Assembly: GCA_046757245.1 (NCBI GenBank)
Contig: JBHHXX010000069.1
Location: 1-10,156 of the forward strand
Direction of reading: 5' to 3'
Length of the DNA: 10,156 nucleotides
DNA from: Candidatus Geothermarchaeales archaeon
Lineage (GTDB): Archaea; Thermoproteota; Nitrososphaeria; Geothermarchaeales; JAUWBL01
This document shows positions 544-6,124 of the stretch, piece after piece. Position 1 is the stretch's first letter. Each line of letters starts with the position of its first letter. A model generated the notes under the pieces. It saw nothing but the letters and a program-made list of their open reading frames with translations. It made no database searches and had not been told where the DNA came from. The position numbers and the translations under genes are program-made.

Positions 544-1206
544 TTGAAGACAAAAAGGCCTAGCAAAGAGGTTGTAGAGGCGCTGAGGAGATTCCCCACA
601 AGCCTCCTCTCCGACGTCCTCGACCAGATGGGCGTCGAGGGCACCATCACCCACATACTACCCATCTCCACCAACGTGAAGATCGCCGGACCCGCCCTAA
701 CCGTCAGATCCATCGCGGGAGACCTAGGCACAGCGGACATCAAAGAGTTGGGCGTGGGCAGGATCCTCGACGAGGCGCACCCCGGCGACGTCATCGTCTT
801 CGACCTGGGAGGTCGAAGCCACGCCTCAACCTGGGGCGAACTGGCCTCCCTCGCGGCAAAGGTCAAGGGCATTGAGGGCGTCGTCATCGATGGCGCCTGT
901 AGGGACGTGGACGAGATCAGAGAGGAGGGATTCCCTGTTTTCACGCGGTCGGTGGTCCCGAGGAGCGGGAAGACTCGAGTCAAGATGCTGGACATCAACG
1001 TACCGATCCAGTGCGGCGAGGTCATGGTTCGACCAGGCGACATCATCGTAGGCGATGGAACGGGCGTCGTCGCCATCCCCCCGGACAGGGCTGAGGAGGC
1101 CGTCAAGATCGCGGAGCGCCTCGAGGAGATCGAGGAGAGGGAGAGGGAGGAGCTGCTCAAGGGGCGATCCTTCAGCGAGATCATGAGGAAGTATCGCCAC
1201 TTCTAG
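544..1206 (+). CDS. RraA-like family protein (dimethylmenaquinone methyltransferase-like / 4-hydroxy-4-methyl-2-oxoglutarate aldolase fold)
   Basis: 220 aa ORF with family hallmarks: 'TSLLSDVLDQMG', 'GPALTVRS', 'GDVIVFD..G', 'ASTWGELASLAAKVKGIEGVVIDGACRDVDEI', 'VRPGDIIVGDGTGVVAIP'. TTG start preceded by GGAG. Confidence 0.85.
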   Translation: MKTKRPSKEVVEALRRFPTSLLSDVLDQMGVEGTITHILPISTNVKIAGPALTVRSIAGDLGTADIKELGVGRILDEAHPGDVIVFDLGGRSHASTWGELASLAAKVKGIEGVVIDGACRDVDEIREEGFPVFTRSVVPRSGKTRVKMLDINVPIQCGEVMVRPGDIIVGDGTGVVAIPPDRAEEAVKIAERLEEIEEREREELLKGRSFSEIMRKYRHF

Positions 1207-3278: not shown

Positions 3279-4589
3279 ATTTGTGGGGGTGTCTCGACAA
3301 CGTCCACCGCTGAAAGCACATGGTTTTGGACCGGGCACAAGACTTATGCAGGGGGAATCATCGTCCTTGCCGCCGTCTTAATCATAGCCGTTCTCATCAG
3401 CGGGTCCCTCCAAAGGCAAACACCCGAGGTTGAAGGGGAGTATGAGAGACTCGTTGAGCAGCTCCTCGACGAGGTTAAGCCAGCCCTGGAGAGGGTTAGG
3501 GGCCTTCCACTGCCCGAGCAGTTTGAGTTAGAAGTCGTTACAGCGGATTGGGTGAGGGAGAAGTGGGGTCGGGAGCACTTTGAATCGATCTCTGAGGAGG
3601 TGGAGATCGACGAGAGGATCTTTAGGTCCCTCTTCCTGATCCCAGAGGGCTTCGCCCTAATGGATGCCTACGTCGACATCTCAAGCTGGACGATGGCCGG
3701 GGTCTTAGACACAAAGCTCTATGTGGTCAAAGACTACTTCAACCCTAGGGTGCTCAAGGCCAGAGAGACCCTAGCCCACGAACTCACCCACATGATGCAG
3801 ACCAGCAGCTTCGATGCCCCTGAGACGGAGACATTCGACGAGAAGCAGGCTTGGTCCGCTCTCATCGAGGGGGACGCCGACTTCACAGCGGGCGTCTATG
3901 TTAAGACCGAGATTAAGACCTCGATGGGGCATAGCCTAAACCATGCCGTCGCGGGAGCGATAGCCCCAGAGGTCGGAGGCTCAAGGGGCGAGGACGTGGC
4001 GTCCGTCAGCAAGCTGAGGCTGTTTCCCTATAACTATGGGGAGGGTTTTGTGAGAGCGCTTTTCTCCAAGGGTGAATGGAACATGGTGAACGAGGCCTAC
4101 CTAAAACCGCCCTCCACCACCGAGCAGATCATGCACCCAGCCAAGTATCTCGATGGAGAGGGGGCTTTGGAGGTGGTGACGCCCCCACTGAATTCTACAG
4201 GTTGGAGCCTCAAAAGGGTTGACAGGATGGGGGAGCACTTCATCTTCGTCATGCTGAGCAACTGGTTGCCCGAAGCCTCAGCCAGCGTGGCGGCTGGGGG
4301 TTGGGGCGGGGACAGTTTAACATACTATGAGAGGGACGGAGATTGGCTCCTCCTATGGGGGGTCGCCTGGGACTCCGACGTAGATGCCTCTGAATTCTAT
4401 AACGCTTTTCTCGAGATGCTGTCGATGGTTGAGGGGGAAGACTCGAGGCTCGATGGGGCTCGGCTTTGGATAGTCGACTGGGGATATGTGATCATAACTA
4501 TGCGGGATGGAGAGACGCTCATAGTGGGTTCAACAGACAGGGAGGCGTTGTTGAACGTCCACGGGGCCGAGGTGGGCTTCACCAAGTAA
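3279..4589 (+). CDS. Membrane-anchored HExxH zinc metallopeptidase-like protein. ORF called from GTG 3552, but the open frame begins at 3279
   Basis: 'LAHELTHMMQ' (HExxH), followed by 'ALIEGDADFTAGVYV' as a candidate downstream Glu ligand. Translating upstream of GTG 3552 gives '...TGHKTYAGGIIVLAAVLIIAVLISGSLQRQTPEVEGEYERLVEQLLDEVKPALERVRGLPLPEQFELEVVTADW', which is a TM segment plus coding-like sequence with no stop until TGA 3276-3278. Confidence 0.7.
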   Translation: MCGGVSTTSTAESTWFWTGHKTYAGGIIVLAAVLIIAVLISGSLQRQTPEVEGEYERLVEQLLDEVKPALERVRGLPLPEQFELEVVTADWVREKWGREHFESISEEVEIDERIFRSLFLIPEGFALMDAYVDISSWTMAGVLDTKLYVVKDYFNPRVLKARETLAHELTHMMQTSSFDAPETETFDEKQAWSALIEGDADFTAGVYVKTEIKTSMGHSLNHAVAGAIAPEVGGSRGEDVASVSKLRLFPYNYGEGFVRALFSKGEWNMVNEAYLKPPSTTEQIMHPAKYLDGEGALEVVTPPLNSTGWSLKRVDRMGEHFIFVMLSNWLPEASASVAAGGWGGDSLTYYERDGDWLLLWGVAWDSDVDASEFYNAFLEMLSMVEGEDSRLDGARLWIVDWGYVIITMRDGETLIVGSTDREALLNVHGAEVGFTK

Positions 4590-4800: not shown

Positions 4801-4810
4801 CTTTTATTAT
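4801..4810 (+). promoter_or_regulatory. Putative TATA box of 5S rRNA gene
   Basis: 'ttaattaaggcttttattatgg', centred about 25 nt before the 5S 5' end at about 4830. Confidence 0.5.
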
Positions 4811-4829: not shown

Positions 4830-4985
4830 TGGTGGTTGGCCATAGGATGCGGGGTACACCAGATTCCCATTCCGAAAATCGAGATGGTTGGACCCATCTC
4901 GGTCGGGTGCTCTGAAGTTAAGCCGCGTCACGCCGGGAAGTAGTAAGGTGCGGGAGCCCTTGTGAACACCCGGTGCCAACCACCA
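4830..4985 (+). rRNA. 5S ribosomal RNA, with about 34-nt insertion
   Basis: Helix I GGTGGTTGG(4831-4839)/CCAACCACC(4976-4984). Loop A 'CCATAG'. Helix II GATGCGG(4846-4852)/CCGCGTC(4923-4929). Loop C 'CCCATTCCGAA' and 'TCTGAAGTTAAG' conserved motifs. Helix V-side CGCCGGG(4931-4937)/CCCGGTG(4969-4975). TATA-like 'cttttattat' about 25 nt upstream of the 5' end. Confidence 0.9.
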
Positions 4986-5008: not shown

Positions 5009-6124
5009 GTGTTCAACGAGGTACTACAGGTCCCAGGTAGAGGGGAGGGGAGTATACTCTATTTCATCCTGCTCTACCTACCCTTCATCTTCTTCATGTT
5101 CTACGGTCAGAGGTTCCAGATGCAGATGGCCCTCTTAGAGATAGGTGGGATCCTGAAGCAGCTGGAGAGGATGAAGGACTTCGCCAAGAGAGAGACTCTC
5201 GACACGTTCAAGAGAGAGGGATGCGATGAAAAGACCGCTGAAGAGAGCTTGGGCCTGATCCTTAACTCCTTCACGATCCTCCCGACGTCCATGGACCCGG
5301 TTGGGGTCGTCAGCAAGGTGGAGCACATATTGAACATCAGAGACGCAAAACTCCTGAAACAGGTAAAGAACACCATCCCCAACGCCGATGAGGCAACAGC
5401 TAGGAACGTGGAGAACCTCGTGGAGGCCACGGCAGCCTTGGACCAGATCTACAGGATCATAAGACACTTCTACCTCCTCGGGAAGAAGATGGGAAACCTA
5501 TACGCGGTCATTCAGCTCCAGATGCTGGCCCCCATGATCATAAACTATGCGAAAGCCTTCGTCAGCGCTGTCTATGCATTCAAACGCGGAATCCCCGTCG
5601 GCGACGGGATAGGCGCACTTGTGGCCGCTAAGATGATCAAGGGCGCGGAGACCGAGGTGATCGCCAAGGACACCATAACCGCCAAGATAGACTTTGAGAA
5701 CAGGAAGGCCTTCGTCGTCAAGGCTCTTGGCCCGGGTGGAAACGTGGGAAAGCCCGGGGAAGCGATAAGAAAGATCGTGGAGATAAATAAAAAGGATATA
5801 AAGCTCATCGTCATGATCGACGCAGCCCTGAAGCTGGAGGGTGAGAAGATCGGGGAGGTGGCCGAGGGCGTCGGAGCGGCCATCGGGGGAATAGGCGTGG
5901 AGAAGTTTAAAATCGAGAAGGAGGCCTCAAGGTATAAGATACCGCTTCACGCCGTCATCATAAAGGAGTCCATTACGGATGCGATCTCCGTGATGAAGAA
6001 GGAAATCTACAACTCCCTGGACGAGGTCCTAAATAGGATTAAAAGGATAGTCCTCGAGAACACCAAGGAGGGTGAGGGGGTCATCATCACGGGGGTCGGT
6101 AACACCGCCGGGATAGCACAGTGA
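5009..6124 (+). CDS. Archaeal DUF1512-like membrane-associated protein of unknown function
   Basis: 371 aa ORF. N-terminal hydrophobic segment 'SILYFILLYLPFIFFMFYGQRFQMQMALLEI', then a long soluble region with 'IIRHFYLLGKKMGNLYAVIQLQMLAPMI' and 'NKKDIKLIVMIDAALKLEGEKIGEVAEGVGAAIGG' that resembles the archaeal DUF1512 family (recalled, not searched). GTG start preceded by 'GAGGT' at 4996-5000. Confidence 0.7.
   Translation: MFNEVLQVPGRGEGSILYFILLYLPFIFFMFYGQRFQMQMALLEIGGILKQLERMKDFAKRETLDTFKREGCDEKTAEESLGLILNSFTILPTSMDPVGVVSKVEHILNIRDAKLLKQVKNTIPNADEATARNVENLVEATAALDQIYRIIRHFYLLGKKMGNLYAVIQLQMLAPMIINYAKAFVSAVYAFKRGIPVGDGIGALVAAKMIKGAETEVIAKDTITAKIDFENRKAFVVKALGPGGNVGKPGEAIRKIVEINKKDIKLIVMIDAALKLEGEKIGEVAEGVGAAIGGIGVEKFKIEKEASRYKIPLHAVIIKESITDAISVMKKEIYNSLDEVLNRIKRIVLENTKEGEGVIITGVGNTAGIAQ

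Follow-up and report, generated by a model that had tools for sequence, protein, structure and literature searches.

The window analysed here is a stretch of 10,156 nucleotides (nt) from Candidatus Geothermarchaeales archaeon (assembly GCA_046757245.1, contig JBHHXX010000069.1), and its 5S ribosomal RNA (rRNA) gene is interrupted by 33 nt at positions 4877-4909. We believe this insert is quite probably a short archaeal intron of the bulge-helix-bulge (BHB) class that is removed from the pre-5S RNA. A preliminary description of the same DNA preferred an expansion segment retained in the ribosome and named excision as the alternative. It is the alternative that we favor on the basis of sequence comparison. 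Cuts at the BHB motif would restore a canonical 5S, the CGGG of the insert pairs with UCCG of the core, and in Bathyarchaeia the same site is occupied by introns that carry homing endonucleases.

The interrupted 5S gene and its close relatives

The locus was rightly called a genuine 5S gene. The Rfam 5S model RF00001 covers window positions 4832-4984 on the forward strand from end to end (model positions 1-120 of 120), with 73 bits against a gathering threshold of 38 and an E value of 2.6e-14; intron-less relatives score 81-87 bits. The Infernal alignment that had been proposed as a check places the extra sequence in loop C, with 36 nt where the model has 3. The whole gene is 153 nt long and has the synteny of the normal 119-120-nt 5S genes of its relatives. 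Alignment with the intron-less relatives gives exon 1 as 4832-4876 (the 5' strand of helix I, loop A, the 5' strands of helices II and III, and loop C as far as CCGAA) and exon 2 as 4910-4984 (the 3' strand of helix III, helices II, V and IV, and the 3' strand of helix I), both on the forward strand. Between CCGAA and CUCUGAAG lies the insert AAUCGAGAUGGUUGGACCCAUCUCGGUCGGGUG, which is absent from five syntenic relatives (L002, L003/4, L005, L008 and L011) and has BHB geometry at exactly these borders; we read it as a mini-intron of the HBh' type. The preliminary description gave 34 nt (4877-4910), which is one too many since C4910 is a base of the core (CCGAA-C-UCUGAAG).

When the exons are joined in silico they give 120 nt that fold into the three-arm 5S structure, and the junction CCGAA|CUCUGAAG is that of the intron-less relatives (CCCAUUCCGAACUCUGAAG, or CCCAUUUCGAACUCGGAAG in L011). 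The product is 120 rather than 119 nt because the window has an extra U in loop C at 4864-4865 (GAUUCCCAU; L001 has GAUCCCAU there and other relatives GAACCCAU). The hairpin was also described correctly. CGAGATGG (4880-4887) pairs with CCATCTCG (4894-4901) around a 6-nt loop (4888-4893), and A4878-U4903 and U4879.G4902 lengthen the stem to 10 base pairs (bp). Folding energies are -14.5 kcal/mol for the insert by itself (z -2.9, with 2 of 200 shuffles as stable) and -68.3 kcal/mol for the whole gene (z -4.2), whose fold preserves the 5S arms. The pairing of exon UCCG with intron CGGG also appears in the minimum-free-energy fold.

The nearest relative is GCA_011771765.1 ("Nitrososphaeria archaeon", L001), whose DUF1512 protein is 83 % identical to that of the window. 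Its 5S gene is 154 nt long with a 35-nt insert at the identical position, and the same 5S sequence recurs in a separate metagenome contig, L006. The five relatives that lack the insert have DUF1512 proteins of 54-63 % identity and an ordinary 5S of 119-120 nt. The gene order 5S, DUF1512, small open reading frame (ORF), methionine aminopeptidase is kept in the relatives, so the 5S of the window is the ortholog of their ordinary 5S gene.

One could object that an insertion has turned the gene into a pseudogene, or that the insert is an error of assembly. The 10 kb of the window are one contig of a metagenome-assembled genome (MAG), and further 5S copies may lie elsewhere in the genome. We find this explanation hardly credible. 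The Logan assembly of SRR29324587 (L007) has a 5S identical to that of the window; L007 was perhaps built from the same reads as the MAG and is an assembler-independent check rather than independent data. Together with the homologous insert in a second species, present in two assemblies (L001 and L006), it argues that the insert is not an artefact. The preliminary description had asked both whether close relatives have a normal 5S and whether the extra segment is an artefact; the answer is yes for five relatives and no for the artefact. The exons of the window and L001 are 92 % conserved (110 of 120 positions, compared with 26 of 35 in the insert), and helix II has a compensatory change from G-C to A-U. 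A TATA-box-like sequence read at 4802-4809 on the forward strand, TTTTATTA, has its centre some 26 nt before the 5S start, and an A/T-rich box stands at equal distance upstream of the 5S in L001 and in the intron-less relatives. Conserved synteny, this conserved box and a Rfam score well over threshold all speak against a pseudogene. Conservation, synteny and the presence of the insert in independent assemblies lead us to reject both the artefact and the pseudogene.

The same site in Bathyarchaeia

Species-representative genomes were scanned for relatives of the DUF1512 gene. We kept 80 loci, mostly from Bathyarchaeia, and loop C is readable in 58 of them. The insert is patchy in its distribution: the window and its sister at 83 % identity have it, the five relatives above lack it, and 56 of the 58 readable loci are uninterrupted. 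The two exceptions are L058 and L040. L058, from the hot-spring Bathyarchaeia MAG DRTY-6_201901_bins_51, has a 159-nt 5S (Rfam 62 bits) with an insert of 39 nt, AGUUGGAGGCAUCUGUAAAUGAUUGCCUCCUGCCGGGAG, at the CCGAA|CUCGGAAG junction. In L040 (Bathyarchaeota isolate Kmv02) exon 1 runs to CCGAA (462), the insert is 414 nt long, and exon 2, CUCGGAAGUUAAACC, begins at 877. Inserts of 412-414 nt stand at this 5S site in at least three Bathyarchaeia lineages besides L058, namely L040, L100 and L092-95. Six distinct introns therefore share one site, with lengths of 33 nt (window), 35 nt (L001), 39 nt (L058), 414 nt (L040), 414 nt (L100) and 412 nt (L092-95).

The RF00001 scan misses the 5S genes that are split by 412-414 nt. 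The suspicion that 5S callers overlook such a gene is correct for these long versions and incorrect for the window copy, which Infernal finds. The pattern CCCATNCCGAAN{10,40}CTCNGAAGTTAAGC had no match in genome contigs and found only L006 in metagenome contigs; it missed L058 because its exon 2 part is too strict, Bathyarchaeia reading GTTAAAC there.

The L040 insert is almost wholly a 131-aa ORF (481-876) that matches Pfam LAGLIDADG_3 (PF14528) with 43.6 bits against a cut-off of 22.5 and has the motif YLRGFADGEGG. Its best PDB matches are weak and are to I-DmoI. The ORF is a predicted LAGLIDADG homing endonuclease. There are 27 relatives of it in the protein database, 43-100 % identical and all with PF14528, and the four that were looked up all lie in or beside 5S genes. 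P0138 (L092-95, from four samples) is within the 412-nt intron and P0123 (L100) within the 414-nt intron at the same 5S site. P0142 (L096-98) lies 45 nt from an uninterrupted 5S gene and is divergent from it, and 12 nt separate P0147 (L099) from a downstream 5S of 137 nt that has 17 extra nt at another position. A compact homing-endonuclease family is apparently dedicated to the loop C sequence.

A homodimeric LAGLIDADG enzyme with a single motif would be expected to recognise a pseudo-palindromic site. In intron-less Bathyarchaeia the insertion point is the centre of TTCCGAA|CTCGGAA, whose halves agree as a palindrome at 6 of 7 positions, and in the Geothermarchaeales type, TTCCGAA|CTCTGAA, they agree at 5 of 7.

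In L058 the 5' end of the L040 type is kept as far as the start codon (GAGGCAUCUG.AAAUG), and so is the 3' stem; L058 is therefore an ORF-deleted derivative. The window element, which has no ORF, is most likely a remnant of a mobile intron or related to one, and it may descend from an intron that carried an endonuclease.

Several details of this family deserve to be recorded in their own right. The 5S in L096 is 112 nt long and uninterrupted (845-956, reverse strand), and the 62 %-identical endonuclease homolog is at 1001-1411 on the forward strand; L097 and L098 are arranged likewise, and the genes for uS5 and uL18 adjoin the pair. This homolog may be a free-standing homing endonuclease beside its target. 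In L099 a 43 %-identical homolog (1001-1441) ends upstream of the 5S at 1453-1589 (Rfam 40.6 bits), whose 17 extra nt, ACUCGAAAGAGGGGGAG, follow CCCAG at about E. coli 51/52. That insert is BHB-like, with ACCC/GGGG pairing at 3 of 4 positions, AG|A, a CUC-GAAA-GAG hairpin, and AG|A again, and it may mark a second 5S intron site. The endonuclease stop codon forms the last three intron bases in L040 (874-876) and L100 (1394-1396), where it overlaps the 3' bulge. In L092-95 the called gene runs 12 nt into exon 2 (L092:1394-1405) and stops at the UAA of GAAGUUAA. The ORF fills the long introns, so the 3' strands of their h' and H helices are coding sequence.

The proposed splice motif, its controls and the rival readings

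We took the BHB layout from the arithmetic of tRNA 37/38 introns and from the way PMC7714728 defines h and h'. On each strand four nucleotides of central helix are followed by a bulge of three, and cleavage comes after the second of these three. All the elements that follow are on the forward strand of the window. In the precursor the exon strand UCCG (4871-4874) would pair at 4 of 4 positions with the intron strand CGGG (4904-4907) to form the 4-bp central helix H, and the CGG of the latter is invariant in all six introns. The 3 nt between H and the hairpin are the intron-side 5' bulge AA|A (4875-4877), with a predicted 5' splice site at 4876/4877. The hairpin at 4878-4903, the one already noted in the preliminary description, closes this bulge as inner helix h' (10 bp, 4878-4887 with 4894-4903, and the loop 4888-4893). 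The equivalent of the 3' bulge is UG|C (4908-4910), with a predicted 3' splice site at 4909/4910; it would lie opposite loop C with no closing exon helix (0 bp), which makes this a relaxed HBh' motif. A tRNA-splicing endonuclease of the broad-specificity (alpha-beta)2 type, as in TACK archaea (Thaumarchaeota, Aigarchaeota, Crenarchaeota and Korarchaeota), would cut after 4876 and after 4909. RtcB would ligate the exons across UCCGAA|CUCUGA into the canonical 120-nt 5S and would probably circularise the intron.

The motif at the insert borders is the strongest of BHB type anywhere in the gene, and the same is true of L001 (H 4/4, h' 6 bp, product 119 nt). H pairs at 4 of 4 positions in L058 and in L092-95 (h' 12 bp), and at 3 of 4 (CGGU) in L040 and L100 (h' 9 bp). 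We asked how often chance would do as well: a complete H and at least 3 bp of h' at the exact junction arise in 0.17-0.26 % of 200,000 shuffles per insert.

The positive control was the tRNA-Trp 43/44 introns of related Bathyarchaeia, whose borders are set by the intron-less allele of L022. With the BHB cut rule the canonical junction ACCCGU|AGGUCGUCGG ranks first among the motifs of L057, L079 and L040 and is among the top motifs in L025 and L062. An alternative geometry, with the bulge 5' of the central helix, finds no canonical junction in the tRNA-Trp 43/44 introns and none that restores the 5S. These control introns likewise have no outer helix. The canonical 37/38 intron of tRNA-Trp was tried as a control and set aside as a poor one, with box C/D-like guide sequences that pair with the exons. 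A group I intron was considered and rejected as well: no group I ribozyme core matched in Rfam in the window (at the gathering threshold) or in L092 and L100 (at E <= 0.01), and the ORF leaves only about 18 nt of non-coding sequence in the long introns.

Covariation was assessed on junction mini-constructs from the six introns. Pairing is seen in 91.7 % of their cells, compared with 77.3 +/- 2.8 % for shuffles (none of 500 reaches 91.7 %) and 32-51 % when the partner strand is slid, in a sample that is small and with a structure derived from the same six sequences. Nine of the ten h' pairs change on both sides, and outside the window h' ranges from 6 to 12 bp. Three pairs of H are invariant, and the fourth is U.G in four introns and U-U in two. 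The search for compensatory changes in the stem that the preliminary description had suggested comes out differently by scale: the insert of the window against that of L001 has only one-sided changes, and the six introns together have changes on both sides.

There are several points that weigh against a spliced intron and we wish to state them together. The excision of all these 5S inserts and the ligation of their exons are what we infer from the comparison, and the host's broad-specificity endonuclease and RtcB are assigned to it by taxonomy, as a member of the TACK archaea (PMC7714728). The strict hBHBh' form does not occur, the exon-side helix h having 0 contiguous bp in all six introns, and the 3' site lies opposite a 7-nt stretch of loop C. 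It is the lack of this closing helix that makes the motif of the relaxed type, and the (alpha-beta)2 endonucleases of TACK archaea do cut relaxed HBh' and hBH motifs (PMC3239211, PMC7714728). Taken alone, the L001 hairpin does not exceed its shuffles in stability (-8.3 kcal/mol, z -0.26). Only two distinct window-type sequences exist, and RNAalifold on their two inserts finds one-sided changes alone, so that this comparison is uninformative by itself. No endonuclease-bearing 5S intron was found in the clade of the window, and the likeness of the window type to the Bathyarchaeia type is confined to the BHB core and could be convergence.

The relaxed motif and the missing endonuclease form are among the reasons we keep some probability for the retained expansion segment, in which the 33 nt stay in the mature 5S and the top of the central protuberance gains an extra hairpin between loop C and helix III. 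In our opinion this is unlikely. It does have arguments in its favor beyond a motif that lacks the exon-side helix. The 153-nt RNA folds with the 5S arms intact, and the insert is evidently tolerated, since the gene is at its normal syntenic position, has a normal promoter-like box and is probably the sole 5S copy. Expanded 5S rRNAs are known from Halobacteriales and several bacterial orders, with inserts that are mostly helical (PMC7812874). The expansion segments described in that survey are paired within themselves and without complementarity to the core, and here the conserved 3' end of the insert, CGGG(U/A)G, pairs with the conserved loop C UCCG. H, the 3-nt bulges and the hairpin agree with splice geometry to the nucleotide. 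The parts of the insert kept between the window and L001 are its ends, AAUCG and CUCG(G/A)UCGGG(U/A)G, which are the BHB core and the basal stem, and the distal hairpin is the least conserved part. It is hard to picture inserts of 412-414 nt that code for an endonuclease in the ribosome at this site, and uL5 is reported to block the bacterial site 42-43, which is close by (PMC7812874).

The two ideas can also be combined. The mini-intron may no longer be removed, or be removed only in part, and ribosomes would then carry a 5S with an extra loop C hairpin. We regard this as quite unlikely. If true, it would be a natural case in which the decay of a mobile BHB intron gave rise to an rRNA expansion segment, and 5S heterogeneity would be governed by splicing efficiency.

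Excision could also occur without religation, leaving a two-piece 5S held together by helices I-III. Fragmented rRNAs from excised intervening sequences are known in bacteria, and the BHB cleavage motif would be present equally. The pieces would be 45 and 75 nt, bridged by helices I-III only, no feature of the sequence speaks against ligation, and in archaea RtcB normally ligates the ends that BHB cleavage leaves (PMC4496867). A two-piece 5S seems to us very improbable, and a BHB mini-intron whose exons are religated remains the reading we prefer.

Known systems and neighbouring genes

The closest precedent for a BHB mini-intron of this kind is in the 16S genes of the Thermoproteales (Jay & Inskeep 2015, PMC4496867). 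There the same loci hold either introns that encode endonucleases or hairpin introns of less than 50 nt that keep the BHB. Like the window insert, the short ones are hairpins of 30-40 nt with a BHB core and no ORF, at a highly conserved rRNA site where other lineages have a LAGLIDADG intron, and they are patchy in distribution and have Thermoproteota as hosts. It is this combination of one rRNA site, a long endonuclease intron or a short hairpin, and patchiness that leads us to read the window insert as a BHB mini-intron. The differences are that the host gene here is 5S rather than 16S or 23S, that the exon-side helix is missing, and that splicing is in our case what we infer.

L040, L100 and L092-95 resemble the LAGLIDADG rRNA introns, such as that of Desulfurococcus mobilis 23S (I-DmoI), in having BHB ends and a LAGLIDADG ORF. 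The 5S endonucleases are much smaller (131-136 aa, with one motif), the ORF fills the intron with its stop codon at or past the 3' splice site, and the intron of the window itself has no ORF. The non-canonical tRNA introns of TACK archaea (PMC3239211) share the relaxed HBh' motif and presumably the same enzyme, and the tRNA-Trp 43/44 introns have the same layout of H, bulge and h'; the substrate here is an rRNA and not a tRNA.

The preliminary description was right that large 5S insertions are rare, and right in placing the Halococcus one elsewhere. Stepanov and Fox list 89 expanded prokaryotic 5S rRNAs, drawn from RefSeq genomes only, and all the archaeal cases are Halobacteriales with a single site, 104.1-105 (PMC7812874). 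The bacterial sites named in the text of that survey are 29-30, 34-37, 42-43, 52-53, 57-58, 66-68, 68-70, 89.1-93 and 96-98. The window site (E. coli A46/C47) is not among the sites named in that text, and 17 sites are described overall. Halococcus morrhuae also has an archaeal 5S with a structured insertion (108 nt, at 104.1-105), and its type has an entire 5S pool of the expanded kind. That insertion is on the side of helix V and the junction rather than in loop C, belongs to Halobacteriales, is retained in the ribosome as seen by cryo-electron microscopy and, as far as it has been described, has no BHB at its borders (PMC7812874, PMC7530397). The expansions of Thermoanaerobacterales and Halanaerobiales (loop C 34-37 and the helix III bulge 52-53) are in the same region and form helices; they differ from 46/47 in position (PMC7812874), and they are bacterial, where there is no BHB splicing.

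Archaeal BHB introns, with or without homing endonucleases, have been described for tRNA, 16S, 23S and a few mRNAs, and reviews and surveys give small and large subunit rRNA as the rRNA hosts of archaeal introns. A survey of candidate phyla radiation bacteria found no insertion in any 5S gene. We found no earlier report of archaeal 5S introns in the literature searched, whose coverage is incomplete, so this is absence of evidence only. That literature treats 5S genes as being without intervening sequences; the mechanism we propose is known and the 5S would be a new host gene for it. An intron site in the 5S that is occupied in several Thermoproteota lineages, by ORF-less as well as endonuclease-bearing elements, would add a host gene for mobile elements, and the 5S of the window would be a small and defined substrate for relaxed BHB recognition outside tRNA. 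There are also consequences for annotation. Short introns inflate the length of the 5S and long ones hide it from Rfam and Infernal, which affects estimates of MAG completeness based on the 5S. It would be wise to check an oversized archaeal 5S for splice motifs before naming an expansion segment.

The neighbours of the gene in the window are archaeal: DsrE-like, RraA-like, Alba, SIS-domain, DUF1512, methionine aminopeptidase, a PALP enzyme and an MGMT-domain protein. The DUF1512 gene (5009-6124) begins 24 nt past the 5S, and this spacer has no T-run. The 5S is immediately upstream of DUF1512 on the same strand throughout the DUF1512 loci of Nitrososphaeria and Bathyarchaeia (L001-L091), and the two may be co-transcribed or functionally linked. 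Rfam and tRNA scans of the window match the 5S alone, with no tRNA and no other Rfam family. A 345-aa ORF at 3552-4589 has a HELTH (HExxH-like) motif and no match in a Pfam scan; its homologs are listed as DUF8575. The Alba-domain protein (1371-1748) has an N-terminal extension of 40 residues rich in glutamate and lysine.

Other RNA genes stand near the 5S in the related loci. Genes for tRNA-Trp(CCA) of 150-225 nt with two or three introns lie beside it on the opposite strand (L022:611-761, L025:620-791, L040:103-326 and about 20 other loci), and one of their introns has box C/D-like elements (UGAUGA ... CUGA) as well as segments complementary to the anticodon arm. In L092 (677-848) Rfam wrongly labels one of these genes a tmRNA, with a weak score of 26 bits that is below threshold. 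L008:1148-1246 is a 99-nt tRNA (Rfam 48 bits), read as tRNA-Leu(UAG), whose D-loop is some 14 nt too long and whose CCA end is encoded. ARAGORN finds no tRNA in L008 and with -i makes an implausible call. The extra nt are probably a non-canonical D-loop intron, with a weak BHB fit (3/4, helices of 2 bp). Finally, L071 (Bathyarchaeota BA2) has two 5S genes 460 nt apart, one of 111 nt (399-509, 62 bits) and the other of 120 nt (971-1090, 75 bits).

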